Positions 12,401 to 49,278 of a DNA stretch of 64,000 bases are shown here, in pieces. The stretch is taken from positions 19,344,001 through 19,408,000 of the forward strand of contig NC_092674.1 in assembly GCF_964355755.1 (NCBI RefSeq), read 5' to 3'. Position 1 is the stretch's first letter, and every line of letters starts with the position of its first letter. The notes below the pieces were generated by a model that was not told the DNA's origin, did no database searches, and saw only the letters and a program-made list of their open reading frames with translations. The position numbers and the translations under genes were made by a program. This stretch comes from Antedon mediterranea. Its lineage: Eukaryota; Animalia; Echinodermata.

Positions 12401-15400
12401 AAAAAGGCACTTGTAGGCTTTTGATGTTAACAAGAAAAACTTTAGTGCCATTTTTATCGACCATGGCAAGTGGCAAATATGATTAAAAGTGGTATCATTA
12501 GAAAGATAATCATGCACTGATCATGTATTTCCATTACACCCATATCCAAAAATGCATAGCAACAGAGATAATCGCAAATTACATATGTCATGTGATCAAA
12601 ATGAGGTCAAAGGTCAAATTTCGGAAACTTATAAATACCATTGTGTTTGGTATCGCCGGTTTTCTTTTTATACTACGTTCATCAGACCATTTTCTAGAAA
12701 TTTTAAATTTTGTCTATAAATAATATAGCTAACACCTTATTTCAAGTTAAAAATAAGTGAGTTTATTATTGTAACGATGTTTTAAAGCCCTAGGACCTAC
12801 GTTTTTTCGCAAACTACATTACTGTATATGTCAAAATAAATACTATATGATCATATTTCGTTAACTTTTTTCGTGTTTAGACTGTTAAAAATGTGAAAAA
12901 TAAGAAATGACCTGGTTTAATGTTTTTAAAGTTATATATATATACATTATTTTTACAAAACGACAATTGCAGGTCTTGGGGCTTTAACTAAAATGAATAC
13001 TTTTTATATTTGTTTTGTAAACATACAAAATGACTATCAGATGTATTGTATAAATGAAGCCTACAGTATGTCACCATGTATAGTACTTCAGTGGATATAT
13101 AAAATATACCAAGATAATAACATTTCCATATCTGACGTGACCATTGTCCAAACTGACATTCAATATTGTGTATTGGGTACACTTAGCTAACCTGATCAAA
13201 GTTCAAAATCGCTTTCTTCTGAATCAGAGGCGGTAGATGGTTGAGTGTTTTCACATATTTCCTCTGATGCCTCACACATGCACATTTCAGTGCAAACAAC
13301 ATTTGCTCGTTTGCAGGAGCAGCGTGCGATTGAACATCTGTTTTTGGAACACTTGCACCTGACAAGTTCGAGGACAGCTTTTGGTGCAGGTGGAAGCTCA
13401 GTTACAACAGGACGGTATGTTTTGTCGTCAATTGTCCATCCACAGTTTGATGGACCTGGTAGTTGTGGCTTTGCTATTCTGTCATGATTCCACACCATCG
13501 CCTGATAATGAGCACGCTTAATGTGCTGTTCGAGTGCGCCTTTTGTTGGTGGCAATTTTTCGGATTCTGCGAACGACTTTTTAAACATTTGCCATCGGAC
13601 TGATGAGATTTCATTCATATTAGTACCTGGTACATAACACTGGCAAACAAATGTTTCTAATGTTCTCTTCATTTCAGAAGAAACTGTGTCTGTGGTGCCC
13701 AGTTGTGCGAATACTGATTGTACGTTATCACATGACTTTTTTAGATGTCTCCACCATCTTGTTTTTCCTTTTCCAGCAAAACGACCAGTTGTGTCACAAC
13801 CGGTAAATGCGTGGAAGCCTGGCAGAGCAGCAGCTAGTTTGTCATCTATTGCTTCATAGATTGGTCTTAGAGGTATAGTGCGCCTCTTGTTGCCAACACC
13901 TGTAATGAATGAAGGATTCTGTCCTAAGTCGGGATATCGTCTTAATGCAAGCAACATAACATCGGTATCTGGTGACATTATTTTGACCTCTTTATGTAAA
14001 CTGGCCACATAGAGGGCATTAAGTATTAGTAATGTGTCTGCCTCTTCTTGTGTGCTTGAAAGATTATCAACATCGCCCTTGTTAGAAATAGCTCCTTGTT
14101 GTGTTGATACAATTACTTCTGTGTTATGTGATTCAAAGTGTGATATAATTGTGTTTGCTAAATAGTAGGTCAAACTAGCCTTTGTCATGTTTTGTGCTAT
14201 GAATTGCTTGAACGTTGTCCGAATTGGTGTGGCATCGGTACATATATGTGATTTATCCACGCCAGTTTTTGTATTTGTCATTCGCCTATTTCGGGTTTGT
14301 TGCTTCAGTGAAATTGGTATACCATAGTGGTCAAATACCATGTGAACAGACTGGTGACTTTGTACATATTTGGTTAACCATTGATTAATTTTGTTAGCTA
14401 AAATTTTGCATGACGTCGTGTCAGTTGATCCAAGTTGTTGAACAAATGCCATACCATCAATAACCAGAGCTTGTTGGCGTGGTACAAATGTGTCCATTTG
14501 GTTTTCATTATTGACAGTAGAATCTTCCAACTCTTCCATAAGCTTGTACTTATCGTTACAAGGTAACAGTGTACCATCATCTGCAAACAATGAACGAGCT
14601 ACATTTGAAAATTCATACTGACCAACTGCGCTTTCAATATCAATTTCTGGACGTGACCTTGCAACAATTGCCATAGGGGCAAAAAGCGATCGATTCTCTT
14701 TCAATTCAAATGATTGTTGTGCAAATTTCACAGAACATTTTTTTCCTGTGGATGTTCAGCGCTGCAATTTAACCTTTGTGACTTTATCCCATAAGCTTTT
14801 ATCGCCAATGATTTTCTTTTGGACAAAGTCGTTATAAGCATCGATTCCACAAGTCTCTTGCCTGAGAATGTCATCTCGAATTGTGTCTGGTATAACAGAT
14901 TTGGTAATTACATTGACTAGTTGATTGCCAAAATCTCTAAATGGATTCATTTCCTGTAGTACAGATTTCAATTTTGTAACCTTTAATTCTTGTTTTCGAT
15001 TAACTGTGGGAGACATTTCATGATGTACGCTTCTCGATAAAATCCCGCCATACTTTCTGCCTCAGATGATAATCTCTGTAATTCTGGTGCAATTAGGAAG
15101 AACCGCTGCAGAGCTGCCGGCTTCTGTGTAATGCCCTATAAGCCTCCAAGAACTTTCAATCGCCTGTTATCTTGCTCTAAAGCATGATCCACACCCAAAC
15201 TATATAAACTGAGGTCTCTTTTCTTAACACAGAAATTCCCTTCTGAAAATTGTTTCCATACATCAGGGTCAGTTGTTTGTAGGCTGTACATCTTTGACAG
15301 GTACTCTGGGACGTGCTGTGCATATTTTAACCTATTTTGGCTAAAAAAGTAGATACATAATTTCTCCAGTGAAGTGAGATGAAGAATCCAGTCTCCCTGT

Positions 15401-18400
15401 CAGGATGCTTTTATGAACTGCATAAGAGTCAGAACCATGTCCATGTACATTAACATTACTCTGAATGTTGGCGAAGAAGCGCTACGTTTGTGTAGTGAAT
15501 AAATCCAATTTCTTTTGTAGGTCACTGACTAAAATTGATAAGTCATTTGAGATCTTTTTTGCTGTGCTTGAATCATTTTCACTACATGCAGTCTGCAGAA
15601 GATCTGATTTTGCAGTAAGTGTCTCGGGGAGTGACCCGTTGGAGGATTGGTATTCATCCATTAGAAGATCATGCAACGCGTGTAGCGTTGTGCTATTACG
15701 ACTCTTTTCATATGTCGCCCTTCAAGTATTTGTCTGGTTGTTGTAGGACCATAGATATCAGCTTCAATCCATGCATCATCAATTCCACTGGCCTCTATCG
15801 AACTACCAATAGCACGAAGTGCACATAGAACTGTATGGAATTCGCCTACTCTTAAAATGCAGTTCTTTGTCATTTCAGGTTTTAGGGATTGTAGTTTGAC
15901 TGCCTTCATATACAGGTCCATGTCCAATGTAACAATGGTCTTTCTGTTTGGTCCAATAATCTGACAATTTATGTGCTGCGCATGCTTTTTAACACAGAAA
16001 GCAATGTGGACCATTCATGAGCAGGTGCTGGTATTAGTAGAAGGGTTTGTATTTGTGTAATTGGTCTCTCATCATTTGTTAGAGTTATAATCCGCCCATG
16101 GTAGTATAAACTCAGTGGTTGACGTTTGATAATCAGTGTTTACAGTTTCATTCGATGAGCTTTCGGGATGATGGTTTTCTTCATTAGTTTTTTACTTAGC
16201 TACAAGCCAGGAACGATCCATGTTAATTGCAATGTTGAAGTTGTTTGTTTGTTGTTGTTTTGTGTAATTCGGATATTTTGGACAGTTACTTGGTTTGGGA
16301 TTTCCACAAATACCACTATCGTAAATTTTTACTCCTGTATAGCCCTTCAGCGATCTGGATGATGATTCAGATGAAATGATTAATTTGTCAGCAGGTAAAT
16401 TACGTTCTGCGGCCTGTTGAAAAGCAACCATGACAGTAGCATGTAGGGTATTTTCCCAATCGTTGGTGTCTTCTGAGAAATATATATTATCCGCAGCAAA
16501 GAACAATGGTCTACCATACTGAAGCCCTGGTGAAATGTAGATGCCACCAGTTGCAGCCATTCGTAAAATTACGGCATCGGCCAGTTGAGTTTCAATGCGT
16601 AGTATCTGACTGTAATTGACTGACAATCCCAACGAACGTAGATAAGAAACCAAATGTTTGCTACGGCTGTATGTATGGACTTTCAAACCAACTGCAAGGA
16701 CGTGTTCATTTCCACAAGTGTGCCTGTACCTGTTGTCACTTTTAGGTGTATCGGCTACTTGCCGTTGAGTTTTGACCTCGTATATGATGCTCTTTGCAAT
16801 GTTTAGACATGACCTCTCTATCTGTTCTGAACGGCAACAATTCATTGATGTCGATGGACCTTGAATTACCCATCTCAAAAAGGTCTTTATGGACGCCGGA
16901 ATGTTGTTGTGTCTTTCATCGCATTTTATTGTCCCATCAAACAACCATGGCGCCTCTCTGCTTTGAAGGATATCTTTTCTTAAAATACTCGCACTCTGGA
17001 AAATACTTTTCAAATCCTCTTCTGGTGTTTCAGATGCCTTCTTGATGGCATTATTTTTGGCCTTATTGGAGCATACCATTTCAGCTTTTCTTTTGTTTGG
17101 CCGGGAAAATTTGATATCTTCCATGCGGGTCATTATGAGGTTTTTAACATACTTGTTGCCGATAGACTTGTCTTCCAAACCATGCATTTTGCGGATGGCA
17201 GTATAAGTATTAGTGACATCATTCATTGAAATAATGTTGCCAGACTGCAGAACGTTATTCAAAACAATGACAAACTCAATATCTGCAAGAATACTTCTGT
17301 TATTATGACAAGGCTCCTGTGTGGCTTCATTTGGTTGGCGTTGTACATACTTTACATAACAATGGAGGTGATATTTTACGTCAATGGCTCGAGCATCATT
17401 TGGTGACAATGGTTGTAATTTTACTTTTCACTCATTATTTGTACTGTTTTGGATAACATCGTATATTTTCTGTCCAACGTCAAAAGAAGACACTTCATGT
17501 AGTTGTTTTTTTGTGTCATCTTCATTGCATACCAAGGCTAATGATGATGATGATGCTGATAATCTGGTGTATGGTTTTTTTGTTAAATCAACAGTGGAAT
17601 CTGAGTTACTATTACATTGTAGTGTGTGTGGTCGACCTTTTGCAGATATTAAAACAGTTGAATCGTTAGTGGCCAAACTTTAATTAAATCGCTGTTTGGC
17701 ACGTTCAATTTTGAGTTTGTGCACAGTCTTCTAAAAACATGACCTATGCCATGATGCTCCATTTTCTTGAAGAACAGACACATCAACATCACAGATTCGT
17801 TTGTTTAATGTAACATAACCTGGATCATTATACCCTGCACGGTCATGGACAGTATCAAGGAACTTTTGTTTGGATTTGGATTGGAAACTAGTTCACCACC
17901 TAGAATTTGACATTTAAGACACGCTGTATAGTTGACATCACAAGAAGGAGTGCAGTAGGATTCATCCATAATGTGTATTTAATGAGACAGCCAATAGATC
18001 ATCAATAGTACACCTGAAATACAATTTTTCTTTTATAAAACGTGTTTTAACAACTAATTGCTACTTTGATAATTCTATTGTAATTTTAGTGTGTTAACAT
18101 AAATATTATAATATCAAGGCTAACATCTAGGCTGACTGACTGCACAATCATGTCATAGTCACATGCGTAGAAAGTGGTTTTGACAGGGTCATAAAACATG
18201 AATGTCCACATAATTTTGGCCTAGCTTATCAATAACTCTAAATAAATAATATAAACTAATATATAGATTTATAAAGTGATATTTTATATTGTACAATTAT
18301 TAAGCTCACAATTAGGTAAAAAATATTTGTAAAAGTACACTATAAACATACCTTATCATGTGATGTAACCGCATTTTGAAAGGAACCTCATGTTCAAAAG

Positions 18401-18828: not shown

Positions 18829-18862
<34 letters not shown>

Positions 18863-19488
18863 CTGAAGACAAGTGCTGTTCCGCCGTACCACGCCGAGAA
18901 TGTTAAAGAGTCGCTATCCAATCGAGTTTGAACAATACCATGAAAGCCCCAGTGGTCTAATGGTTAGGACATCTGCATATCAAGCAGGCGGTCCGAGTTC
19001 GAGTCTCAGTTGGGGCGACTTTTTCTCATTCTCACAGATTTCCTCATCTTTATCGTTTCAAATTAATTAATTAAATTTCAGTATATCACCGGGCGGTTTA
19101 GAATTAATGTTCTTTGCCTCTTTTGTTTATATATATAAAAGTATCTCTTCGGAGATCCCGCCTCGTGAATAAAAATACTGAAAGATGGGGGCGTATCAAT
19201 TTGATCTCTGTTGCACGTGCGTACAACTGAGGACTAGTGCTGTTCCGCCGTACCACGCCGAGAATGTTAAAGAGTCGTTATCCAATCGAGTTCGAACAAT
19301 ACCTTGAAAGCCCCAGTGGTCTAATGGTTAGGACATCTGCATATCAAGCAGGCGGTCCGAGTTCGAGTCTCGGTTGGGGCGACTTTTTCTCATTCTCACA
19401 GATTTCCTCATCTTTATCGTTTCAAATTAATTAATTAAATTTCAGTATATCACCGGGCGGTTTAGAATTAATGTTCTTTGCCTCTTGT

Positions 19489-19534
<46 letters not shown>

Positions 19535-19859
19535 TTAACAAAAGATGTAATTTATGTATATATGAAAAGTATGTTATTATATGTCAACCAGAGCTATGCT
19601 AACTGAACCGTAAGAACGAGTTAGTCTCTACTTGTAGACATAGGAAAAAATCCTTACTAAATTGCAGATCCAAACAGTTTATCTAAAACAATAGGCTATT
19701 GTATACGACTTCCTGATGACTCACTTTTATTAAGCACTATGAGACAACTGTGTCACTTATGTTTTATATTTCACCTGAAGAGTGGAGCCAGCTACATGCT
19801 GGTCGTACGAAACAAATTTGTAGTGATTAAAACAATAAAGTAACCAAGTTTTCTGCTGT

Positions 19860-19921
<62 letters not shown>

Positions 19922-21869
19922 CAATGAAGTTGCGTAGCACTGTGTAAATTATATATAAATCATACTGTAAATTATAGAAACAGTGCTCATATTCGGAACA
20001 TGATCTCATTGTATGAGAGAATGTATCTGGTGGGTGAAAATCTGTGATAATACCATACATGGCTCTGTGGTCTAGTGGTATGATACTCGCCCTGTAAGCG
20101 AGAGGTTGCAGGTTCGAATCCCGCCAGAGACATTTTTTCATACAACTAAAAAATACGGAACTTTCGCCAATGAGCTATGCTCGACGCGATTATGAGATCA
20201 TGTTCCGAATATGAGCACTGTTTCTATAATTTACAGTATGATTTATATATATATATATATAAATCATACTGTAAATTATAGAAACAGTGCTCATATTCGG
20301 AACATGATCTCATAATCGCGTCGAGCATAGCTCATTGGCGAAAGTTCCGTATTTTTTAGTTGTATGAAAAAATATATTTATACAATATACATGGTTTTCC
20401 AATATATAAGTTTTCATTTTGATTATATTCTTTTCAAATTGATTCATACTTAGGATTTTTTACCTCTTTCAATTTTTATATAATTTAATCACCTTTTTAT
20501 ACATTATCATTTATTATAAATCTCAAAAAGAAAATCTCAGAATTTATAATATATTATTGTTAATTTGAAATGAAGGAAGTAAATGTTTATTTGATTGGTT
20601 GATAAATGTGGTGTAACGGAATCATGGCCACTACCCTTCTTAAAATCTGCATTTAAAATAATTGATTTAAAAAGAACGAATTTGGAGATGGAGCAGACAT
20701 AATAAATAAAGCATCTTCAGAACAGGAATAAATTGATTTAGAAATGTTCATATCATTAGAAAAATATTTATTGAACAATTCGAATATTCTCGTTTATCGG
20801 TATACGTCACCAAATAATACAGTGTGGATTTTTAGTGTTTTTCCTTCCAGGGTTTATGACTGAAATTATATCGGAAGACATATATGCTTTCAATTGTTAT
20901 TAGGTTGTTCAAGTTTAGATGTATAATATTTCTTTTTTTGGTAGTTCGACAAAGCTTGTTAAAAATAATTATTTTTATATTGATTGTATTAACGCTTATG
21001 TTGAGGGCTTCGTGATTGGATAAATTTTTTGTATAATTGATGTTTGCGTTCACTGCATTTTAACAAGCTGGATTTCATCCATTGCTGTTTGATTTTACAT
21101 TTCTTTCAATTAGTTGGCTTAATATGTTAGCATGAATACTATAACATTTGTTTAAGAACATTCGAAAACTAAAAATGTATGATCACAATCATAGATTTCA
21201 GACATGTTTCGTTGGTTAGATCAATATAAATGTACTAATATCATTGATTTTTAATGATTGACTTGCAGTGGGCCTTTGAACATGAAAATCTTCTCAATAA
21301 ATGAGAGAGAGTATCTTTCTTTTCCATTTCGATAGTACAAAAATATAATATGCGAATACATAACATACAAATATACCTACATGCTTCCGGTTGTTATGTT
21401 TTTGAAAGTTCCAGTAGATATTTTTTCTAGGTTAGGATTGTATTGAACTAACCTATTAAAAAATATATAAGATATAATTGTTATTTACATTAACAAATAG
21501 TTCGCATTAACATTGGCGGGTGCAATTATTTGGGATTTTCCGGTCTTATTATTTTTACATTAATGGGTGTTGGAGTTTGCATATACAATTTATTGTATTT
21601 ATGTTCTTGGCATGTTTAGCGTAGTTTGAATTTTCCCAAATGTAACAAAGGCCTTCAAAAAAACAATTGTTTCTTAATTTAAATTACAATAAAAGAAAAC
21701 GAATAATTCACGAATGTTACTTACACTTCAACACTATAATCTGTATTCAATGCAAATGTATTTTCAACGAGCACTTGAATTTCGTTGTCATCCTGAATCC
21801 GCCTAAAAAAGTATAATATATATATAATATACCCACAGCATTGTCATTTTTTCAGTAATTTGCCTTTGG

Positions 21870-21908
<39 letters not shown>

Positions 21909-22045
21909 TATAATATATGGCGTACCATGTCCCGCATACCTAGCTCAGCATATATATTGTGCCAGTTCTGCGGTACATTTCATTTCGAAAACCCAAGCTG
22001 CACTGACGAGATCTAATAAGATCGAAACAGTACTGTCTGCAGATT

Positions 22046-22125
<80 letters not shown>

Positions 22126-22127
22126 GA

Positions 22128-22224
<97 letters not shown>

Positions 22225-23077
22225 AGTCTCGGTTGGGGCGACTTTTTCTCATTCTCACAGATTTCCTCATCTTTATCGTTTCAAATTAATTAATTAAATT
22301 TCAGTATATCACCGGGCGGTTTAGAATTAATGTTCTGTGCCTGATTTGTTTATATATATAAAAGTATCTCTTCTGAGATCCCGCCTCGTGAATAAAAATA
22401 CTGTAAGATGAGGGCGTATCAATTTGATCTCTGGTGCGCGTGCGTACAACTGAGGACTAGTGCTGTTCCGCCGTACCACGCCGAGAGTGTTAAAGAGTCG
22501 CTATCCAATCGAGTTCGAACAATACCATGAAAGCCCCAGTGGTCTAATGGTTAGGACATCTGCATATCAAGCAGGCTGTCCGAGTTCGAGTCTCGGTTGG
22601 GGCGACTTTTTCTCATTCTCACAGATTTCCTCATCTTTATCGTTTCAAATTAATTAATTAAATTTCAGTATATCACCGGGCGGTTTAGAATTAATGTTCT
22701 GTGCCTGATTTGTTTATATATATAAAAGTATCTCTTCTGAGATCCCGCCTCGTGAATAAAAATACTGTAAGATGAGGGCGTATCAATTTGATCTCTGGTG
22801 CGCGTGCGTACAACTGAGGACTAGTGCTGTTCCACCGTACCACGCCGAGAGTGTTAAAGAGTCGCTATCCAATCGAGTTCGAACAATACCATGAAAGCCC
22901 CAGTGGTCTAATGGTTAGGACATCTGCATATCAAGCAGGCGGTCCGAGTTCGAGTCTCGGTTGGGGCGACTTTTTCTCATTCTCACAGATTTCCTCATCT
23001 TTATCGTTTCAAATTAATTAATTAAATTTCAGTATATCACCGGGCGGTTTAGAATTAATGTTCTGTGCCTGATTTGT

Positions 23078-23147
<70 letters not shown>

Positions 23148-23347
23148 CAATGATGTTGCGTAGCACTGTGTAAATTATATATAAATTATAGAAACAGTGC
23201 TCACATTCGGAACATGATCTCATAATCGCGTCGAGCATAGCTCACCGGCGAAAGTTCCGTATTTTTTAGTTGTATGAAAAAATGTCTCTGGCTGGATTAT
23301 GAGATCATGTTCCGAATGTGAGCACTGTTTCTATAATTTACAGTATG

Positions 23348-23419
<72 letters not shown>

Positions 23420-24361
23420 CAACTGCATATCAAGAAGACGGTCCGAGTTCGAATCTCGGTGGGAGCTCATTCTCACAGATTTCCTCATCTTATCGTTTCA
23501 AATTAATTTATTAAATTTCACTATATCACCGGGCGGTTTAGAAATAAAGTTCTTTGCCTGCTGTGTTTATATATATAAAATTATCGTCGGAGATTCCGCT
23601 TCGTGAATAAAACACTGAAAGATGAGGCGTATCAATTTGATCTCTGGTGCGCGTGCGTACAATTGAGGTACTAGTGCTGTTCGCGTAATTTTTATTTTCC
23701 AGGACGAACGTGGGCAATTTGCATAAATGGACGTGGCTTAATTCCACAACTACTCTCTCGCATGCGCATATGGTCTACTTTCAGCAGAGAGAGTGTGTAG
23801 AAAGATTAAATCATTTTTGTAAACAGCGTTCGCCGAAATGTTTGGTCTAGTGGTAAAGGCGTTAATCTATTACACTTAAGCCCTCGGTTCGAGGTCTTTT
23901 TTTTTAGTAGTTGAGAGAGATTATTTAGAGGGTTAGGTTTAGGATATTTAGGAAGTAGATCAGCTATCTTGCAATTCTTTATACAGTAAAATTCCTAATA
24001 CAGAAAATAATTAAGGTAATGAATTATTAATAATAATAATAATAAGATTTATAGAGCGCACATATCCACAAAGTGCTGTTGTGAAAACCATGCGAAATGC
24101 AACCATGAAACTAAAAACAACAAAAAAACAAATTTTAAGGTGCACAGACCTGCCAGTTCATTACTCACATGTGTTCTCAGTAATGTGGGTATCTAGCTAA
24201 ACATTCATGATTTCTGCCCACGTTCGTCCTGGAAAAAAAATACGCATGCTGTTCCGCCGTACCACGCTAAGGAGTCGCTATCCAATCGAGTTTGAACAAT
24301 ATCATGACAGCCCCAGTGGTCTAATGATTAGGACAACTGAATATCAAGCAGGAGCAGTTTT

Positions 24362-24400
<39 letters not shown>

Positions 24401-24586
24401 GCTATGACTTTATCCAAATTCCCTCACTTGCACTGATAAAGGGCTAGTGTTTCCCGAAAGCTCTGCTAACTTTTCTGGCTGGTTACTTTATCGTTTTGAT
24501 TTAGCTTTTCGCTTTTTTTTGTATCTCCATTGAGATCCAGCCACTGATACCCACAGCATTGTCATTTTTTTCAGTAATTTGCCTTT

Positions 24587-24652
<66 letters not shown>

Positions 24653-25292
24653 GGTAATAATAATAATAATAATATGAGTATCGTTAGTACATATAAAACA
24701 AGGTAATGACAAAAACTACAACAAAAAAATTCCTTTTTTAAAGGAATTATACAAGCCTGAATTATATGATGTTCCTAATTTAAATCTGTCTTTATTTTTT
24801 TTCTCCATGCAAACCTTTAAATTACAATGAAACACATTTTCTATTTCAACAAACTTACAATAAATTTAACTGCATATTTACAAAAGTGAAAGGTTCAATG
24901 CCAAGTATATGGTTTGACGATATGTATCTGAAAAAAAAACCAGTTTTATCATTATTATTATTATTATGTGTTATTATTATTATTATTAGTGTTATTTTAT
25001 TATTATTATTATTATTATTATTATCAGTAGTAGTGGTGGTGTTGGTAGTAGTGGCATTGGCATTAGTGGTATTAGTGTAAATGATAGTGGTAGTAATATT
25101 GGTGGTAATGCTAATGGTAGTAGTGATAGTGACATTAGAGATAAGTGGTGGTAGCGTTGATAGTGGTGAATTAGTGGTAGTAGCGGTACCAGTATTAGCG
25201 GTATCGGCAGTAGCGGCAGTGGAAGCAGCACAGTAGTAGTAGAAGAAGTAGTAGCAGTAGCAGTAGTAGCATGAGTAGTAGTAATAGTAGTT

Positions 25293-25335
<43 letters not shown>

Positions 25336-25336
25336 C

Positions 25337-25388
<52 letters not shown>

Positions 25389-25589
25389 ATAGTAGTAGTA
25401 GCAGCAGCGGTAGTAGCAGCAGCAGCAGTAGTATTAGTATTAGAAGTAGTAGTAGTAGTAGTAGTGGTAGTAGTAGTAGAAGTGGTAGTAGCGGTAGTAG
25501 CAGCAGCAGTATTAGTAGTAGTAGCGGTAGTAGCAGCAGCAGTAGTATTAGTAGTAGTAGTAGTAGTAATATCAGTAGTAGTAGTAGTA

Positions 25590-25646
<57 letters not shown>

Positions 25647-28600
25647 ATAGTAGTAGTTGTTGTAGTAGTAGAAGCAGTAGTAGTAGTAGTTGCGGAGTGG
25701 CTATGGAGTTTGTGGTGTTGACAGTGGCGGTGGTGGTGGCGGCAGCAGCAGAAGCAACAGCAGTAGCAGTATTAGCTATAGTAGTAGTAGTTTGCAGTGT
25801 TTCGTTATTGTTAATATGCATTTAAACAAAATGTATTCACTTACAAATGATCTACCAAATTGGAGCCTTTAAATGTAGTACTTTTTAGTATAGATATACT
25901 GTTGTGACTTATATTTCTATTCCAAAAACAACACAAAATGAAATATTATAAATAATAAATATCGTTCAAACAGCATTGTTATATTCGGTATTGCAGCAAC
26001 GGCAAATTCCCATTGAAAAGTTGTGTCGATTTCCTTTTTTCCAATACTTTTTTGTCAACAATTAAACATTCTCATTTAGTTTCGAGAACGAATGGGCCAA
26101 CTGCAATAACTATCGAGTGAGCAGTATTCTCAACACCTAATATATTTTCTAAAAACACAAACATGAGAGCCAGCATTGTCTGGCATTATTGCCAACATTC
26201 CTGTCTCTCATTCCTAATAATATCCATCACAGTAGTTTGTTTACAGGAAACATTATAAACAGGCAAATTCCCATCTTCACAACCTTGAAACCCACTATCA
26301 AGTATAGGTTCTATACTGTGTTTCTGTATTTATTATTTATTTTTTGCACATTTTGGGGCACGCCGCATATGGGGCAGAAGCATGGCAACCCGAAAACTAA
26401 AGTAAATTTTGGCGTTTCATACATATAAAACTTGAGCTAAATTTACAGTCTATGAAGAAGCCTACATGATGCGCGTACACTTGACACTATGATGGTGCAT
26501 ACGATCTGGTTGAATAGCCACATTGGCTAGTCACCCAAAACCTTTTGATATTCATATTTTTCCAATAGGGTTTTTGAGAGATTAAACTGCTCTGAACATG
26601 CGTTCTGTTACGTTAGACGACATGGAAAGACACGTGTACGACTAAATACACTTCAGCTTCGTCTACAACATGTATGTATATAGCAATTTGCCAAATTCAG
26701 TCATAGTGTACCGTTTTACCACATGATTGTATAATTCTACTTTATATTTATCTAGTTCCGTTGGTTTATAAATAGTAATTACACCTTTATTATTAAGTTA
26801 ATAATCAATGTACAACGATATATATTTTGGCACAATACCAACACATCTTTTTTTAATGCAGGCATATAAAAATATATATTTTAGAAACAATTGAGAAATC
26901 GATTCTTAAATGGATGATAAACTTACACAGTACGGAGAAGTGGAAGGTCATTAAAACATGTTGATACTTCTGTCAACATGTTATTCATTGCATATCTAGG
27001 AAATAAAAAAAAATTCAACAAAATGTATGTCCGATTATTTCAAATAAAAAGTAGTGTTATTTCCAATAATAAACAAGCGAAAACAATATTTTCATGACGA
27101 AAGCCCTAATACCGAATACGATACGACAAGGAGATATTTTAGAAATAGTACTTACACTGATAAGATTGTCTTTGGAAATCTTGGTAAACTAGTAAGTAAA
27201 TTATTATTAAGGTTTCTATCAAAAACAAAAACAAAATTAAAAACAAACACAAACTAGCGTATAAATGTTGGTGTAATGATTCACCCTAATAATTTCGTTA
27301 TGGGTTAACTTACACTCAGGTGTGTTCACATTGCATTTCACTTTGGTAAGTTTCGGATGTACACGTTACCAGGAAATTAATAGTTAGAGTTTTATTCTCC
27401 CACTTCCTTGACGGAACACCAGATAGAAAATATAGGCTGTGAGTTGTTATTAGCATTGTTGGCGATAATATTACCTTACTTTTTGTCAAATCTTAAATAA
27501 TGGGTTATTTATATTAAAATATTTTAGTTATCATTACTGCTACTTTATTAGTCATATCTGAAATAATATAAGTTTAAACCTTACATGGATGTAAGTTTAT
27601 GTAAATCTAACAAAGCATCGTCGTCGATTTTCTTCAGGTTGTTATAGCCTATATTGCTGTAAAAAAATTATGTTAAAAACAAACCTCTAGTTTAAATTGA
27701 ATCGGCGGCTAGCCTACTAATTAACCTAGCATCAATCACAATCTATATTGTAATAGCACTAATCCAAAATGTGTTCCTCTATCTCCTCCTAAACCGCAAG
27801 TCGCTTAGTTTACTTTAGGAAGCCTTTATATAGAGTTCTGCGGTGCTGACGACACGACGGTAGCCAACCAAAAAAGGCGTTCAACCTGCCTGAATGACTC
27901 CAAGGTTACCAATTGTTGAAATAGGCTGATTGAAGTAACTTAATAAAAACAAACTAAAATTTCAAAAGATCACTAAATATTTGTTTTTAATAATCTTTTT
28001 ATTGTTCAACTACAGTTTAAGTTTTAAAAAATCAATTTTAAAACGTAATAAAAACAAACTAAAATTTCAAAAGATCACTAAATATTTGTTTTTAATAATC
28101 TTTTTATTGTTCAACTACAGTTTAAGTAAAAAAAATCAATCATAATTTAATTTGATAGAAATACAGATCTATACAGTTTATCAACATAGTAGCGTTGAAC
28201 GATTTTTTTGGTAATTGTATGCAGCGCCATCTATCGTTGTGACGTCAAACCGCAGAAATCTATAATTGCATAGTTTTAGACTATAGATTTATACATTTGT
28301 TTATACTATTATTGTTTACAGATTGCGAACATTCTGATCATTCATAGTGAAATAAAGATATTTGAAAATGTTTAAAATGTGTGAAACGTGTCTTCATTAC
28401 AATACTGGACTTAGATATAGTACCGATAATCGGTTATTTAAAATTCACAATTCCACATATTATTACTCGCATGTTTTTTTTCAAAGGTTGACTTATCTGT
28501 ATTTTACATATTCATAATTCATGGATAACATTTATCACGTAAGGCATGATGAGCTAAAATCAAGAGCAAAATATTTATTTTATGTTGCTCAAGTGATGTG

Positions 28601-30265
28601 TGCTTTTTTGACAACTTTTTTTCACAAATCGGTCGCTTTTTTATCGGTGCTTTCAATGAAAAATATATCTTTTTTCTCAAATTTGAAGACTTTTTTGCAA
28701 TACTAATTTTTGGTTTAAGTAAGGAATAAAATAAACCTTTACTACTCTGACTAGTGATCAAAATAATTTAAAAAAAAAGATCATGATTTTAATAAATGTA
28801 CAGTTAGTAGTTGGATGGTATGCTATAGTACTTACAGTGAAGTGATTGTCATTGGAAACTTTGGTAGGCTTGTAAGTGAATTATTAGCAAGGTTTCTGTA
28901 AACATTAAGTAAATTAATTGGTAAATTATTTTATTTTCTTTGAAATAAGCGCATACGTGTTTGTGCAATGTGTGCAATAGTCTATTTTAATGGGAAGTAT
29001 TTCAACATAATGACTATACAGCGTCATGATAATTATGTGAAAAATGTTGCTAACCATCTCTAAAGTCCGGGAACGTAAAATCAGACAAGGTACCATTGTA
29101 TGCGATGACATATTCTTTTCCCATGGATGATGAATGAGTAAGGATGACCAACAAAAACACGGTGTCAATCAGGGAATTTCACTCTTCAATCCAGTTTGTG
29201 AGAGTGTCGTTTTTAGCATTGTTAACAATAATTATGTTCTTTCTTTCTGTAAATTATATCCTGAGTTATGGACACAGATACCAATAATAAAATATGTATC
29301 ATTGATAAATTAGACGTATTCAAAAGGAGCAAAACTAGATAAAATAACTCAAAACAATAACAATTAATTTTGAAACCTTACATTGAAATAAGTTCCTGTA
29401 GCTCTAACAAAGCATTGGTGTCGATTTTCTTCAGGTTGTTATCACTAAAGTAACTATAAACACGTAATTATGTTATTTTATGTTAAAACTACTAGTTTAT
29501 TTAAAATCCGTTATTATTACCAATAATCAACTATAAACTAATGTAAAAGCACCAAACATTAGAGAAATACATGTTGTCGAATGTTTTAACATCGATGTAC
29601 GTACCATCTTTTTTTCCAAAATGTTCTAATAATGAGTTTTTGGTTAGCTAAATATTTATATGCGATTCTCTCAATACGTTTTCAATGTTGGCTTATATTA
29701 AAAAAAAACAATAAATAAAATTGTGTTCTACAAAGTTAAGTTCTTGACGGAAGTATGCGCATGCGCTATATTGTAGATGAAATTAGGACTACTGTATCCG
29801 GGAAATTACCACCTGAATTAAAACCTACCCTAACTACAATATTGCATCTCACATAACATGTACCGTACATAGTTAGGCCAGGGAAAACTTTATTACAAAA
29901 TTACATATTTAATATATTACAAAGTTTATATTTGTACTAATTTTTAAATATGTTATTGGTGAATAAGCTGAATTACATGGGATTAAGTTTTATTTACTTA
30001 CTTTTTGTTAAATTACGAGATTTATAAAATTCAATATTAATTTAAAAATCTAAACTTACAGCACCAGTGTATTTACAGGAATTCCAACCGGCCATTCATT
30101 GAGTCCACGGTTTGTACAATTCACTCTTCGTGTTCTTTCTGTACATTCACAAACTGCCTTCACATTAGTATCATTACTACATGCAACCTCAACACATTTA
30201 GAAGAATTCACAAACAAACACAACAAGAGCAAAGTCAATAAATCATGAGACATCATCTTCAACAT
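3401..30265 (-). CDS. Multi-exon membrane receptor-like protein: signal peptide, LRRNT, ~17 LRRs, Cys-rich (TNFR/ephrin-receptor-like CxxCPxG) repeats, ~9-TM domain; ~1129 aa
   Basis: Hand-assembled GT-AG exons (minus strand): 30265-30060, 29453-29382, 28895-28836, 27656-27585, 27215-27156, 26995-26927, 25916-25845, 21802-21725, 21452-21381, 10949-10881, 10702-10631, 10316-10251, 9364-9230, 8957-8889, 8487-8413, 8285-8214, 7250-7191, 5773-5592, 5358-3652, 3522-3401. They sum to 3390 nt with no internal stop. LRR exons are all phase 2 (e.g. [40 protein letters not shown]). AATAAA at ~3283-3288. The 7191 donor (GTAAAC) is weak, and extra exons cannot be excluded. Confidence 0.85.
3652..5358 (-). 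CDS. Large penultimate exon of the LRR receptor: Cys-rich repeats plus multi-pass TM domain
   Basis: Acceptor ttgcag|GTGGC at 5358 gives GGFYQDKLG...[10 protein letters not shown]...CPSGTD...DRFGPC. This continues into the 518-aa ORF ([37 protein letters not shown]). Donor G|gtaagg at 3652. Confidence 0.9.
5386..5531. repeat. Intronic tandem duplication of ~67 bp
   Basis: aaaacaatttagataaaatcgtttatgtataaagattatttgctatgtgatcaaatt occurs twice. Confidence 0.85.
6410..6530 (+). mobile_element. CR1/L2-type LINE 3' ORF2 remnant
   Basis: Translates [35 protein letters not shown], resembling the conserved CR1/L2 C-terminus (G..LWN.LP......F K..LK..LL). Confidence 0.6.
7367..8191 (+). mobile_element. 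Non-autonomous Helitron
   Basis: 5' TCTATATATAAATT; 3' GC-rich GCGAGCGAAGCGAGC then CCCTCTAG|T. Its first ~130 bp and its 3' end are shared with the element at 50261-51582. Confidence 0.7.
11920..12260 (-). mobile_element. Degraded CR1/L2-type LINE reverse transcriptase fragments
   Basis: [29 protein letters not shown] and [21 protein letters not shown] are typical non-LTR RT motifs. Confidence 0.75.
12377..18718 (-). mobile_element. Academ (XPG-type) DNA transposon, near full length, decayed
   Basis: Ends TAGTTCAGGAGCTT...AAGCCCCTGGACTA with imperfect TIRs. 3-bp TSD GTT (12374-12376 and 18719-18721). The internal ORF has Academ architecture. Confidence 0.88.
13196..17969 (-). pseudogene. 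Academ transposase (DDE + XPG-like nuclease + Cys8/CXC), frameshifted
   Basis: ORF fragments 16192-17409 (AADNI...[11 protein letters not shown]), 15661-16014 ([14 protein letters not shown]), 14756-15016 and 13196-14731 ([36 protein letters not shown]...RAHYQ, CKC..C..CSC..CT..C.C). They lie in different frames. Confidence 0.88.
18861..19492 (+). mobile_element. Family A tandem array (~1.7 units, period 364 bp) within (TA)n
   Basis: Near-identical units 364 bp apart, with tRNA-like cores at 18946-19017 and 19310-19381. Confidence 0.9.
19310..19381 (+). tRNA. tRNA-like cloverleaf with anticodon ATC (Asp), part of repeat family A; probably not a housekeeping tRNA
   Basis: GCCCCAG TG GTCT AATGGTTA GGAC A TCTGC ATATCAA GCAGG CGGT CCGAG TTCGAGT CTCGG TTGGGGC G. 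All four stems pair, A/B boxes are present and T5 follows immediately. Confidence 0.6.
19771..19826 (+). ncRNA. Type I hammerhead ribozyme (Penelope-like), in a (TA)n-flanked element at ~19527-19865
   Basis: TCAC CTGAAGA [stem II containing CCAGC/GCTGG] GAAA CAAATTTG TA GTGA. Stem I is TCAC/GTGA, stem III is palindromic, cleavage triplet GUA. Confidence 0.75.
19917..20371 (+). mobile_element. Family B tRNA-containing element with inverted partial copies, within (TA)n
   Basis: tRNA-like core at 20061-20132. Its 3' end is repeated in inverted orientation at ~19937-20007 and 20261-20371. Further copies at 23143-23351 and 56355-56833. Confidence 0.85.
20061..20132 (+). tRNA. tRNA-Pro-like pseudo-tRNA (loop CCTGTAA, nominal anticodon TGT) in family B
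   Basis: GGCTCTG TG GTCTAGTGGTATGAT A CTCGC CCTGTAA GCGAG AGGTT GCAGG TTCGAAT CCCGC CAGAGAC A, followed by T6. One acceptor and one T-stem mismatch; C33. Confidence 0.5.
20590..21330 (-). mobile_element. Degraded CR1/L2-type LINE ORF2 fragment (EN-RT linker)
   Basis: [21 protein letters not shown] resembles the PWIT..I...IR.K..LYKK motif. Many frameshifts. Confidence 0.55.
21998..22042 (+). ncRNA. Minimal type I hammerhead ribozyme (Penelope-like)
   Basis: CTGCA CTGACGA GATC TAATAA GATC GAAA CAGTACTG TC TGCAG. Perfect stems I and II, palindromic stem III, GUC site at 22035-22037. Abuts (TA)n. Confidence 0.88.
22048..22222. repeat. (TA)n microsatellite (others at ~18830, 19492, 19866, 21872, 23085, 23351, 24365, 24589, 56832, 57515)
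   Basis: Direct inspection. These tracts produce the spurious IYIY ORFs. Confidence 0.98.
22225..23078 (+). mobile_element. Family A tandem array (~2.4 units, period 364 bp) within (TA)n
   Basis: Units at 22460 and 22824, joined at TTTATATATATAAAA. tRNA-like cores at 22533-22604 and 22897-22968. Confidence 0.9.
23143..23351. mobile_element. Family B partial inverted copies between (TA)n tracts
   Basis: Matches 19917-20007 and 20116-20243 in both orientations. Confidence 0.85.
23417..24352 (+). mobile_element. Family A copy interrupted by a MITE
   Basis: Family A sequence at 23417-23682 resumes at 24246. Confidence 0.8.
23683..24245. mobile_element. ~563-bp MITE with ~33-bp TIR and 8-9-bp TSD
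   Basis: GCGTAATTTTTATTTTCCAGGACGAACGTGGGCA ... TGCCCACGTTCGTCCTGGAAAAAAAATACGC. TSD gTGCTGTTC/aTGCTGTTC. Contains A/B-box-like remnants at ~23843-23895. Confidence 0.8.
24428..24466 (+). ncRNA. Degenerate minimal hammerhead ribozyme (core CTGATAA) in a (TA)n-flanked element at ~24400-24588
   Basis: TTGCA CTGATAA AGGG...CCC GAAA GC TC TGC, with palindromic AGCT stem III. The element's 3' end is repeated at 21829-21870. Confidence 0.5.
24950..25792. repeat. Intronic (TAG)n/(TTA)n low-complexity repeat
   Basis: Direct inspection; mirrored at 49066-49962. Confidence 0.95.
27944..28128. repeat. ~85-bp tandem duplication
   Basis: taaaaacaaactaaaatttcaaaagatcac...cagtttaag occurs twice. Confidence 0.85.
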
Positions 30266-30339
30266 TTGTGCAGGTAAATGCAAATTTAGACTGCCTCTAC
30301 GGCAGTTATAGATTGTGAGAAACTTACAAAGGACAATGC

Positions 30340-30360
30340 TGTATTATATGAACCAATAAA
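30340..30360 (-). promoter_or_regulatory. Candidate CCAAT + TATA-like core promoter of the LRR receptor
   Basis: Minus-strand ATTGGTTCATATAAT lies ~80 nt upstream of the ATG. The paralog has ATTGGTTCATATAAAA at ~47333-47348. Confidence 0.35.
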
Positions 30361-32806
30361 ATCCAACTATTTAAGGTTTTATTTGTGTTTGTTTATAGAA
30401 AAGTTGTGAAACTATTCATTGTCACCAATACAAACATATTTCCGGGTTCAATGCATGTGTTATGTTTTCTAGAAATATTGGCTGCTCTTTTAATACAAAT
30501 ACCATTAGTACGCAGCCAACAGACATTAAGAAAACATCAGCACAAAGTGCGTAACCTCGTTTTTAGTTCAATCTATTGTTATCTTAACGTTTAACGATCC
30601 TAACCATTGATTGTGCCGTAGTATAATACAATGTAGGACTTGATTAAACTAACAAATAAAAATTATTGGTTGGTTTCAAAATCATGGAATGACTAAATAA
30701 GGAAACATAAACAACAAACGAGAGTGCATGTATTTACGTGATTTCTTTGTTTAGCAGAGATGTTTACATTTTAAATGAATTCTGAATTCTGATGACGATC
30801 TTTTTAGGTCAGTGCTGTCTAAAATAAACAATTAAACAGAATACATAACTTTTTTTAAAAACATGCTAAAAATGTTTCACAGCTTTACCTAAGTATATTG
30901 TTTAAAGCAGTATTGTAACAAACTACCCATAGCACAAGCCATCTAAAGAATAGTTAGCCCAGGCAGAAATAAATGAATTAACATAACGTTAATATATTAG
31001 CCGACTCATTTATAAAAAAATTATGTAGTTCATGAACATTTGAAACATAGCATCATTGACTGTTTTAGATAGATATATAGAAAAAAATTGTCTTCCTTGG
31101 CAAGAATATAAATATAAAAAGATCATTATATAACATATTTAAAATACTTATAAAACAAATTACACAAAAATATTTATAATATACTGCACAGGTATTAATA
31201 GTGAAGGCATCGGAATTAAAAACTTCTCTTAAATCGTGAGTTAAAAATATGAATAGCATTTGGAGCAAAAGATAGCCTAAAACATGACTTATTTGATTAT
31301 TTATTATTAATATTTTATGCATATAAAATTTTAAAAATTCTCTTTCGAAACAGCAGTTTTTCGTACCGAAAGTCTGTTTCTGATATGAGTTAAAGTGGTT
31401 CCATATTATTAACCTATTTTTTTTGGCCAGTTTTACACACCGATCGTTTCTTCGTGATTTCATGTCGCTAAAATCTATCATGATGGTATACTAGAATTGT
31501 AGCAATGTGTTCGAGTATATAAAAATTATTGTCCATGATTAAAACAATGGATACAAATTAGACAAATATTTGTTGCCACTTGCGATAGAAAAGAGTATGG
31601 GTTCGTATCCTAACAAAAAATGTACTATTAAAATATGACGAATGAGGGCGTACTATATTTTATGGAAGGGCATTTTTATTTGGATATTTTTAAACACATA
31701 ATTATCTGTATATTATATATTAGTTTAAATTTCGATTTCTTTTTATGTTATGTATTTTATTATATATTTTATTGCAAACTGAACTTAAATTATGCTATAA
31801 ACAGTTAATTACCATTGGTTTCATAGCTTTTTAATTACATCTAATTTTCTCCTTAAATCCCAGACGACGTTGCACGACGACTTTCCAATATATTCTGAAC
31901 ATGCTGCGTGAATTTCATAGGGAAAGAGCTTAATATGCTACGGTGAAGATGATTTTTACTGTACTAAATAAAATGAATACAAATATTAATTTATTCATAA
32001 AAATAACCAATGAAAATACCATCTTTGTTACAATATTATAGAGAAATGATGAGATGGAATATTAGGCAACATGTTTTTTCTTATCGAATAGGTACTTATC
32101 TACGGTATGTTCTTTTGTTTACATAAAATGTGGTTTTTCTTCTCGGGCTGATTTTCAATATGTTTCTTTTTCGTCAGTAAAGTAGAGCGGAGTAACAAAC
32201 ATTGTAAACATTTGACCTGCAAAGATGGCATGTTTAAAATGAGATCAAAGTGTGATTAAAAGATATATTTCAAAACAAACACACAAAGTTAGTATAATGC
32301 AATTAAATCCTTTATTCTGTGTATAAGGTTAAAGCAGTAATTAAACTAGTATTATTCAAGTAAGTGCTTTTTGTCATTGAAAACATGTGTCTATTACTTT
32401 CTTTATTTCACATTGTTTTATCCATTAAAAATGTGTACGGAATTCATTTAAAAAGGTGCCTGTTTGCGTAATATTCAAAATAATGCCAACATTTTTAAAA
32501 ACAGATAATCTGTTCAATGAAAAGCTTAAAGTGTTATCTTTAAAGACATTTTGCTTCAGATTGAAATCTTCATTCTGTGTAATATATTTTTATAATATTG
32601 TGGAAAGCTCAGTTTACATAGAAGAACACTACACGTGTATATAGAAAAACCAACAAATCAATGCTATTCTTCCAGGGGCATTAGATATCACAAGCAAACT
32701 TATTATAAACGTAACTATGTAATAATATTGGTATTAGCTTTGGCCATCGTGAAGGGATGAGTAAGCGTATTTTCAGTTTCTTTATTAAAGATGTATTGTC
32801 CTCTAA

Positions 32807-33166
32807 TGTCTGAGAAGGATTCTCAGAATATGGTGGCCAGAAAAAATAAGAAATGAGGATCTCAGGGTTAGGACTGGACAAGAGCCAGTGGAAATTAAAA
32901 TTGGCAGAAGAAAATGGAAATGGATTGGTCACACACTAAGGAAACCAAAACACAACATAACTAGGCATACCCTAACATGGAATCTCCAATGAAAACAAAA
33001 AAGAGGACGCCCAAGGAACACATGGAGGAGGGAACAGGATAAGGAGGTGAAGGAAGCTGGCTATAACTGGACAGAGGTGGAAGGAATTGCCCAGAACCGT
33101 GTGAGATGGAGACGTGTAGTTGATGACCTATGCACTAGGTGTAAAAAAGCCTAAGGTTAAAGGTCA
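32807..33166 (+). mobile_element. 5'-truncated RTE-clade LINE
   Basis: CLRRILRIWWPEKIRNEDL...KWKWIGHTLRK...KRGRPRNTWRR...IAQNRVRWR. 12-bp TSD ATTGTCCTCTAA (32795-32806 and 33167-33178). Confidence 0.92.
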
Positions 33167-33659
33167 ATTGTCCTCTAAAACATGAAAAATGAAGATTAAT
33201 TAAATTAGACTTTGAATATTTGTTGTTTTAATAAATAAAGTTAATCCCTTCCGTAAAAAACCCATTGGCTCAGTTGACTGCCAGCCAATTTGACCATTAA
33301 AAAAAAATTTAAATTACAGTTTTTTTAGGTAATACATTTTTTCGATTAAATTTTTGTTCAAAGTGGATAATTATCATGTAACATTAAAATGGCATATTCA
33401 ACAAAAGCAATTTAACATTTTTTTTTTCAGATGACAATACATCTTTAAGCAATCAAGGTCAATTAAAATACTGTACATACATATCAAAATAACACTTAAA
33501 TAGAAAACATTTGCGCAAAGGAACATATCTTGATCACAAGGATAGCCAAGAAAAGTTTCTTATTTCCACTAATAAGGTAAGTATGAAAATGTCGTTTTTT
33601 AAACACGACAATTCCAAACAAATTCTATTGGAACGTCTTGATTAATACTTCTTACTATC

Positions 33660-34458
33660 ATTACTAGGAACATTCATTGCGATGGCGTTACTTTTACTCA
33701 CTACAGACGGTTCACTCATTGCAGTGCCATCCGTGTTGATGTACTAGGCTGCTAAAGTACATGTTATCTGAAACAAAAAAATAAAAGAACCTCTAAACGA
33801 ATCCTAGTTTTATTATTGGAAGTTGTTGGGGTAGTTGTCCTTAGGAAGGAAGTTGTTCCTGATGGAAAGGTTGTTCTGATAAGAAAGTTGCACTAATAGG
33901 GTAAGGGGACGTTTTACTAGTAATAGTTCAGCAAATGTGTCCATGGTTATAATTTTACCGAATTGCTTTGGAAAACCTAAATAAAGTCTCGTTGTGCTCG
34001 GATTTGGGTTGAAAAAACTAAAGAAACATCGAGCAGATCTCTGTTTTAAATTTAATTTGAATATAATAATTGTTAATATTAATCGAAATATTCATTTTGT
34101 ATGTATTTAAGTTATATTTATGATTGATTATTATCTCAATTATGTCTATAAATTTAACATCGTTTTGATAAAAAAAAATGTTATGTTGGTGTTGTTGTTG
34201 TTTTTAATAAGTTTGTTGCTCCTTACCATTGTACTGCCAGAACCAAATACGCTTTTCAGCTGTTGTGTGCCCAATGTTACCGAATTAACATGAACCGCTG
34301 GAAATGCAAAGCTGTGTCTATTATTTCCTTCCGCATACCATTTCACAGTATACGACATGTTACTGTAGTGTTGGACATTGAATCTACAGATAAACTCAGT
34401 GTCACATAAGCTTGTCTGTATAAACTACAATGTTGGCGAAAGTGAGTTTGCAGATTGT
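33660..34458 (-). pseudogene. Two orphan exons encoding an Ig-like (VWDE-type) domain fragment with stops
   Basis: Exon 34458-34227 (AG/GT bounded) reads SPTL*FIQ...EFICRFN...YTVKWYAEG...GSGSTM. The next exon, from 33767, reads ITCTLAA*. The family assignment is tentative. Confidence 0.5.
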
Positions 34459-34552
34459 CTGAAAAACATGTTATGGTACAATTACATTTAAATGATAGCA
34501 AATGTAATTTTCTTCCCTGCTTCTGAAATTTTCTGTTCTTAAATTGTTTAAA

Positions 34553-49013: not shown

Positions 49014-49065
49014 GTAAGTGAATACATTTTTTTTAATGCATATTAACAATAACGAAAATCTGCAA

Positions 49066-49168: not shown

Positions 49169-49214
<46 letters not shown>

Positions 49215-49222
49215 CACTACTA

Positions 49223-49278
<56 letters not shown>

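Follow-up and report, generated by a model that had tools for sequence, protein, structure and literature searches.

Introduction

Insertions made by Penelope-like retroelements are recognised by their 5' truncation, by partial tandems, by inverted copies next to them and by a tail of 30-40 bp that is confined to one end (PMC8557442). The Hydra clade of these elements carries hammerheads, is found in echinoderms and is nearly always inserted into (TA)n (PMC8557442). It has been proposed that Penelope-like reverse transcriptases (RTs) copy circular templates (PMC7229834), which is among the mechanisms still unsettled in PMC8557442. Animal Penelope-like passengers have been defined by their hammerhead and searched for with a hammerhead filter (bioRxiv 10.64898/2026.07.22.740005); passengers based on a tRNA would therefore be missed or filed as short interspersed nuclear elements (SINEs), satellites or tRNA genes. 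Here, we describe family A, a tRNA-bearing repeat in a 64,000-nt stretch of AT-rich DNA from the echinoderm Antedon mediterranea (NC_092674.1, positions 19,344,001 to 19,408,000; hereafter the window), to which all copy counts are confined. We propose, with moderate confidence, that family A is a ribozyme-free, retrozyme-like retroelement that is copied into (TA)n by the RT/endonuclease of a Hydra-clade Penelope-like element from circular or longer-than-unit RNA.

Results

The 364-nt repeat unit of family A, which is abundant and encodes no protein, has a tRNA copy at its centre and a leader complementary to this copy. For the array at 22225-23088, Tandem Repeats Finder (TRF) gave a period of 364, 2.4 copies and 99% matches. 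Its features are as follows:

22225 to 23088, plus strand: family A partial tandem made up of a 5'-truncated copy (22225-22360) and two whole 364-nt units (22361-22724 and 22725-23088); TRF, BLAST
22048 to 22222, strand not applicable: 5' flanking (TA)n target run; TRF
23079 to 23144, strand not applicable: 3' flanking (TA)n run; family A ends in TTT, followed by (TA)n
22715 to 22724, plus strand: internal (TA)5 junction between units, the putative priming site
22897 to 22968, plus strand: tRNA copy with anticodon ATC and A-box and B-box sequences; ARAGORN, Rfam
22533 to 22604, plus strand: second tRNA copy of the array; ARAGORN, Rfam
22971 to 22975, plus strand: T5, resembling an RNA polymerase III (Pol III) terminator, paired with the leader in the rod
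22847 to 22884, plus strand: anti-tRNA leader, pairing with 22948-22984 (T-loop, 3' acceptor strand, discriminator, T5 and trailer)
22885 to 22892, plus strand: 8-nt linker at -12, predicted to pair with the D-loop (22911-22915); same place and sequence in the sister family B
22745 to 22777, plus strand: outer left arm; its pairing partners are 22993-23001 and 23030-23047
22730 to 22743, plus strand: local 5-bp hairpin; a similar hairpin lies at 24523 in the hammerhead family C2

A first-pass annotation of the same DNA had described head-to-tail 364-nt units with an embedded tRNA and an anti-tRNA leader, a tRNA that is central rather than 5', and units that meet at a short (TA)n. TRF, ARAGORN and Rfam confirm this anatomy: the tRNA copy starts 172 nt into the unit, and the junction is the (TA)5 at 22715-22724. 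The two tRNA copies score 56.4 and 57.9 bits in Rfam, and the Rfam alignment includes the sequences of the A and B boxes of Pol III, a candidate promoter. The anticodon is ATC with an A at position 32, which to our knowledge is not a normal eukaryotic decoder; the tRNA is presumably like tRNA-Gln or tRNA-Glu. No open reading frame (ORF) of at least 110 aa is encoded in the unit. Most copies retain an intact tRNA and T5, and anticodon-arm variants are common in contigs from public sequencing runs. Family A accounts for 3,989 of the 64,000 bases of the window, in seven stretches, and supplies eight of its nine ARAGORN calls. The higher Rfam score, a cloverleaf in which every pair is standard and the T5 terminator would all be expected if family A were a tandem cluster of functional tRNA genes, with the antisense leader as a regulator. 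However, the ATC anticodon with A32, the common anticodon-arm variants, the dispersal of truncated copies in microsatellites and the share of the window occupied by the family make this explanation scarcely credible.

BLAST placed further copies of family A at these loci:

18858 to 19501, plus strand: partial tandem of 1.8 units, bounded by (TA)n
23415 to 23682, plus strand: older partial tandem, preceded by (TA)33
24247 to 24364, plus strand: degraded fragment that terminates in (TA)16
55476 to 56312, minus strand: first part of an array, with a single internal restart at 55856
51649 to 52468, minus strand: continuation of this array past an inserted 3-kb inverted-repeat element

One locus is inverted:

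2561 to 2998, both strands: head-to-head inversion, minus-strand arm 2561-2822 and plus-strand arm 2817-2998, both arms ending in TA

At their 3' ends, family A copies finish with TTT and then (TA)n, or at other AT-rich points and then TA, and 51 and 58 contigs from two public runs exit the unit at the junction into (TA)n; (TA)6 or longer runs make up 1.2% of the window. The 5' ends are scattered over unit positions 85, 95, 101, 132, 192, 229 and 273, and none of these seven lies within 10 nt of the first tRNA nucleotide at position 173 (the count omits an inverted arm at unit position 252, a piece with an internal deletion at 51726 and the end at 52468, which the 3-kb insertion created). Partial tandems are found at 18858, 22225, 23415 and 55476-56312, and inverted 5'-truncated copies adjoin the insertion at one family A locus (2561-2998) and at two loci of family B. 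Family A shows most of the testable features of a non-autonomous Penelope-like element, namely 5' truncation, tandems, inversions and a (TA)n target. If the template were a linear RNA beginning with the tRNA, priming at the TA junction would yield copies of the tRNA and trailer only; the template therefore likely exceeds one such unit, and we are fairly confident that it was longer than one linear tRNA-headed unit.

A candidate for the enzyme that moves family A lies next to one of its arrays:

19536 to 19864, plus strand: 3' end of a Hydra-clade Penelope-like element, the candidate helper, 329 nt, adjoining the array 18858-19501 in the same (TA)n run
Parts of this fragment: broken frame 19537-19683, in which codon 22 is a stop; a hammerhead-like core at 19775; an AATAAA; and a (TA)n end

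The frame of the fragment has 666 relatives at E<=0.001 and lies near the C-terminus in most of the 150 matches listed; the fragment is identical to P0178 at 23 of 40 positions (E 1e-16). Longer relatives of one match are proteins of about 705 aa bearing the RWK, DKT, CxCX5C, CxxC and CxH motifs by which the Hydra clade is marked (PMC8557442), and the assignment to this clade is a comparison of motifs with that paper rather than a placement in a tree. The fragment itself had no match in Pfam or the word index and PDB returned nothing relevant, while among its relatives Pfam gave a sub-threshold GIY-YIG hit in two of 22 and none in the six long ones. The first-pass annotation had suggested that the concatemers come from reiterated reverse transcription, which is supported by the fixed (TA)n 3' ends, the scattered 5' ends, the inversion and the Hydra-clade 3' end in a shared (TA)n run. 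Mobilisation of family A by a Penelope-like element is, in our judgement, highly probable.

The same observations bear on two more conventional explanations. In the first, family A is an ordinary tRNA-headed SINE moved by a long interspersed nuclear element, with the left arm being an old inverted duplication and the tandems arising by local DNA duplication or by several insertions into one microsatellite. A tRNA followed by a trailer of about 110 nt and (TA)n is indeed SINE-like, older subfamilies exist and sub-types are mixed in some arrays. Yet the tRNA forms the start of none of the seven copies, the tRNA has the same left arm before it wherever a locus is long enough to contain one, including loci on opposite strands and as far as 50 kb from each other, T5 lies directly 3' of the tRNA, and the G:U strand bias described below is unexpected for a neutrally decaying DNA inversion, so that a SINE seems very unlikely. 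The second explanation invokes a DNA-level element, either a TA-targeting miniature inverted-repeat transposable element (MITE) or a Helentron-like one, or else a Helenus-type terminal-repeat retrotransposon in miniature (TRIM) with the tRNA in its long terminal repeat (LTR). It would account for the internal inverted repeat and the TA target, and animal Helenus elements have a tRNA-like sequence, with tandem arrays reported for one family. However, in a MITE the inverted arms would be terminal and not internal, inspection revealed neither a pair of LTRs nor a primer-binding site or a purine tract, the 5' ends are variable and G:U is strand-biased; we consider this group of explanations even less likely than a SINE. 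Both cases that the first-pass annotation had named as contrary to its reading, a MITE and a locally duplicated ordinary SINE, therefore fit poorly.

Two further observations concern the arrangement of the insertions. The family A inversion junction (window 2780-2860) falls in the region where the leader is similar to the trailer read as its reverse complement, and this one case suggests that the inversion may have arisen by fold-back through the element's own inverted repeat. In a hand tally of the cluster at 18830-24650, ten independent 3' ends abut (TA)n, of which nine share an orientation (p 0.02), or nine of 12 when inverted arms are counted (p 0.15); the RT may have jumped serially between templates, or fresh (TA)n may have been reused.

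Folding of both strands revealed an asymmetry, as the minimum free energy (MFE) of family A is -121.7 kcal/mol (z -5.6) for the plus strand and -98.6 (z -3.5) for the minus strand. The leader pairing proposed in the first-pass annotation is present in the MFE structure, in which the leader helix bridges the 3' end of the tRNA. The proposed rod is retained as long self-pairing, although it is branched rather than simple: two hairpins project from its sides, and it contains a 28-nt bulge as well as a multiloop. Similarly, of the outer arm given as 22735-22777, the part from 22745 to 22777 pairs with the far arm, whereas the TTCTGAG segment forms the loop side of the hairpin 22730-22743; position 22738 is G as the majority allele in all four public runs, giving this hairpin a UUCG tetraloop. 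With strict strand-neutral scoring, the leader pairing score was matched by three of 2000 dinucleotide shuffles and the half-versus-half score by 13 of 2000. The deviations within the stems had been described as mostly G:U, and the aligned arms of family A indeed contain six G:U, no A:C and four other mismatches (p 0.016). When the arms of families A and B are pooled in a strand-neutral alignment, 84 Watson-Crick, 10 G:U, one A:C and seven other pairs are found (p 0.006), which identifies the plus strand as the folding strand. Since a DNA inversion decaying neutrally would yield as many G:U as A:C pairs, the pairing of both families was likely shaped on plus-strand RNA, through selection or through editing of a duplex. 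The long fold-back of element D, used as a control, is without strand bias (-444.7 versus -450.1).

In the monomer, the rod is predicted to be favoured over the cloverleaf by about 13-18 kcal/mol, and the pair probability of the acceptor, D- and T-arms is about 0. We therefore regard the leader as a lock and not, as had been suggested, as part of a toggle between rod and cloverleaf; such an alternative is predicted solely for a read-through RNA in which two tRNAs share a single leader. Family A yielded no ribozyme, either with a core-motif scan of both strands, the sensitivity of which is incomplete (it missed the hammerhead-like motif of element D), or with Rfam at E<=10 on 22500-23078. Family A is therefore not a retrozyme, and what is left of the idea of a retrozyme or viroid-like RNA is a probable retrozyme-like way of working and the plus-strand fold.

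The same design recurs with another tRNA in family B:

20009 to 20243, plus strand: family B with leader 20009-20043, tRNA copy 20061-20132, T6 and trailer
19919 to 20009 (with a 32-nt tail) and 20254 to 20373: inverted arms around 20009-20243
56360 to 56832, minus strand: partial tandem that yields one copy of an approximately 368-nt unit
23145 to 23350, strand not applicable: head-to-head inversion with a tail on the inverted arm only

The tRNA bodies of the two families are identical at 40 of 72 positions, and we take that of family B to be like tRNA-Pro. None of 2000 shuffles reached the leader score of family B. Each leader fits its own tRNA, with duplexes of -46.8 and -38.5 kcal/mol for the cognate and -14.3 and -14.9 for the crossed combinations, and the 8-mer at -12 is common to both families (chance 4e-5 per site). 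Family B has a strand bias as well (plus -81.1, z -5.5; minus -59.1, z -2.6), and its leader helix also bridges the tRNA 3' end. At two loci, family B carries a 32-nt tail at one end only.

We also inspected four public sequencing runs (X1 to X4), none of them registered as RNA and all in the form of contigs, which cannot show ends, strand or level. X1 is the only one that joins across the GT-AG intron of a neighbouring gene and is therefore likely RNA. In X1, 1,102 contigs match the unit of family A and together cover 28 of 28 bins, and one contig among those listed spans the TA junction; these contigs show the presence of family A only, and intronic read-through, or carry-over of DNA from a family with so many copies, would look alike. 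A higher X1 depth over the tRNA and trailer was rejected as a signal, as X2 also varies 7-fold along the unit and contigs show neither level nor ends. The gaps in X1 cover within 3010-3649 were likewise not used, the intron joint alone being used. Relative to a stretch of the neighbouring gene family, the depth of family A is approximately 1,000-12,000 in X3 and X4 and 3,000-61,000 in X2, ratios that are a rough sign of abundance, since summed depth is not copy number. Pattern scans gave no match in metagenome contigs (two scans) or in viral contigs.

Several neighbours of family A carry hammerheads or hammerhead-like motifs. Family C (21903-22048, plus strand), located between (TA)n runs directly upstream of the family A array, has a type I hammerhead with its core at 22003 (Rfam HH9, E 4.5e-4, below the gathering score) and is likely an ordinary retrozyme. 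Family C2 (24401-24589 and 21830-21872, plus strand), with a hammerhead-like core at 24433, has a 22-nt hairpin motif and an 11-mer in common with family A. The two best matches combined were reached in none of 400 shuffles and in two of 256 genomic windows, this being one of many comparisons, and might reflect a shared cis-signal or shared ancestry. Element D (56893-57514) is a near-perfect fold-back with a minimal hammerhead-like motif per arm and a tail of about 33 nt at one end, and resembles the 3' terminus of a further element of the Penelope-like kind. Rfam did not recognise the hammerhead-like motifs in D and E, the assignment of which is by core motif.

The remaining features of the window are of other kinds. 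A large exon at 3587-5383 (minus strand), just upstream of the family A inversion 2561-2998, belongs to a crinoid leucine-rich repeat (LRR)/ephrin-receptor-like membrane protein family; its 566-aa frame (3653-5350) shares 89% identity with a protein of Antedon mediterranea and approximately 50% with proteins of Anneissia japonica, which marks the host as a feather star. The 3-kb element that interrupts the family A array (52473-55470) has 231-nt inverted ends (97%), 21-nt subterminal repeats and an 8-nt flanking direct repeat, and from this 8-nt duplication we take it to be hAT-like. At 23830-23910 (plus strand), an A-box/B-box-like stretch followed by T9, with no ARAGORN or Rfam call, may represent a third element of the Pol III type. 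A pair of related elements, both broken in part, at 13199-17427 (minus strand) and 37126-41262 (plus strand), with ORFs of 519, 411 and 345 aa, Cys-rich C-termini and no Pfam match, are probably DNA transposons. Finally, 24665-36983 and 41580-50237 are the two copies of a large inverted duplication that has diverged (75-85%) and contains (AGT)n/(TAC)n arrays together with LRRNT-like exons.

Discussion

To explain how a unit without a ribozyme could be copied from circular or longer-than-unit RNA, we propose that the tRNA supplies both the promoter and the RNA ends of family A. In the first step, Pol III would initiate at the tRNA of one unit and at times pass T5 into the next unit; Cassandra, in which transcription runs from a 5S copy on to the following one, provides a precedent for such read-through (PMC10886601). 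The resulting RNA, with two tRNAs and one leader, is predicted to have one cloverleaf free and the other one masked. RNase Z or RNase P could then cleave the free cloverleaf, and Pol III termination or trimming would set the other end, giving a 364-nt monomer. In the case of RNase Z, the first and last bases of the monomer are predicted to pair with adjacent leader bases, resulting in a nick within a helix that could be ligated. RNase P and RNase Z leave 5'-phosphate and 3'-OH ends, unlike hammerheads, the ends of which are joined by RtcB. In the next step, the leader is predicted to lock the remaining tRNA against further processing. Judging from the insertion anatomy, the helper would then nick (TA)n and prime on the unpaired UA tract; in the predicted circle, the (TA)5 junction is largely single-stranded (unpaired 0.74-0.94 across 8 nt, mean 0.36). 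Copying would run past the tRNA into the previous unit and stop at random, leading to 5'-truncated tandems and inversions. That tRNA processing yields a discrete monomer or circle is the more doubtful part of this proposal, and we put it forward tentatively.

A number of results weigh against the proposal. The read-through RNA has a minimum of -153.3 kcal/mol, compared to -147.9 with the second tRNA free and -143.5 with the first tRNA free, all within 5-10 kcal/mol; as the equilibrium fold masks the first tRNA (-153.3) and not the second (-143.5), the RNase Z route needs co-transcriptional folding. In addition, a T5 immediately 3' of the tRNA should terminate most Pol III transcripts. With regard to the fold, the regions for the G:U count were picked after the fold had been seen, and a helix over the tRNA 3' end is also expected from an ancestral inversion. 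Covariation, one of the checks named in the first-pass annotation, was not significant, with none of 111 pairs in five whole units and one of 62 pairs in 17 rows, a result reached by 148 of 500 shuffles; the power here is low because the copies are mostly >90% identical. Among stem variants in the public runs, in which 40 of 56 variants were visible, 11 of 15 visible ones keep pairing compared to 55% expected (p 0.12). The subset at >=5%, in which eight of eight keep pairing (p 0.008), is not relied on, as the threshold was set afterwards. The 368-nt stretch of family B folds to -84.7 on the window plus strand and -92.7 on the minus strand, which agrees with the bias since B lies on the minus strand, but it is a single copy. 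Concerning the helper, it is visible in the window solely as a broken 329-nt end, and Pfam revealed no RT or GIY-YIG domain in 144 of the 217 window ORFs (the other 73 overlapped repeats or longer ORFs). Non-autonomous Chlamys elements generally share 3' sequence with their helper (PMC8557442), whereas the 3' end of family A has no significant alignment to either Penelope-like end in the window, the helper fragment or D. Lastly, no one-ended tail was seen at the seven family A ends compared in the window.

In a competing explanation, family A is mobilised by a Penelope-like element from long linear read-through of arrays, with the tRNA serving as promoter or passenger, the leader shielding the RNA from RNase P and Z, and no discrete monomer or circle being formed. 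Scattered 5' ends and tandems are accounted for equally well in this way, and the monomer fold offers essentially no cloverleaf for cutting. On the other hand, a common unit size (364 and about 368 nt) and linker offset in two unlike families suggest a defined RNA species, and most copies have retained an intact tRNA and T5. We regard linear read-through as unlikely, though still a serious competitor, and favour a defined RNA species, either closed or longer than one unit. As two families with different tRNAs each have their own leader, the tRNA module would be swappable in such a system. One might speculate, as a possibility we ourselves rate as rather unlikely, that animals harbour retro-replicons in which Pol III and RNase Z or P cut the unit, the leader splints the ends for ligation and afterwards keeps the tRNA shut, the circle is copied into (TA)n by a Hydra-clade RT that travels around it, and the tRNA module can be exchanged.

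If the proposal is true, genomes can give rise to RNA circles through tRNA processing without a ribozyme. Family A, being abundant and young, with a sister family carrying a swapped tRNA and with a named candidate helper clade, would then provide a direct test of circular-template copying by Penelope-like RTs. It also affects tRNA annotation, given its share of the ARAGORN calls in the window.

The first-pass annotation knew of no described element class with this design. In agreement with this, neither a Penelope-like passenger that bears a tRNA and lacks a ribozyme nor a leader of the anti-tRNA kind was described in the literature covered, most of it as listings, to which paper supplements, Repbase and Dfam did not belong; nevertheless, retrozymes, Sm-alpha, MRC1 and Cassandra/Helenus are partial precedents. 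Non-LTR retrozymes are likewise non-coding, self-paired tandem units, of 150-450 bp compared to the 364 nt of family A, for which a circular template and a Penelope-like helper have been proposed (PMC7229834; bioRxiv 10.64898/2026.07.22.740005). Each of their units contains a type I hammerhead, whereas family A has a tRNA copy and a complementary leader instead. The MRC1-type non-autonomous Penelope-like elements of Chlamydomonas show the same 5' truncation and insertions of multiple copies joined head to tail, and indicate that the helper clade does not require a hammerhead in its passenger (PMC8557442). In contrast to family A, for which this was not found with the two fragments compared, they generally have 3' sequence shared with the helper, and no tRNA is mentioned for them in the part of PMC8557442 available. 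Sm-alpha and Sj-alpha of schistosomes are high-copy, SINE-like and linked to satellite DNA, and have a tRNA-derived sequence; Sm-alpha differs by carrying a hammerhead, and an anti-tRNA leader is unmentioned in the available part of its description (PMC2770079). Cassandra and Helenus TRIMs similarly use an internal small-RNA gene as Pol III promoter, but have LTRs, a primer-binding site, a purine tract, two fixed ends and 4-5-bp duplications (PMC10886601). Finally, in viroids and plant LTR retrozymes a processing motif is also blocked by complementary sequence in the folded RNA, with the difference that the blocked motif is a ribozyme there and a tRNA in family A (PMC7229834).
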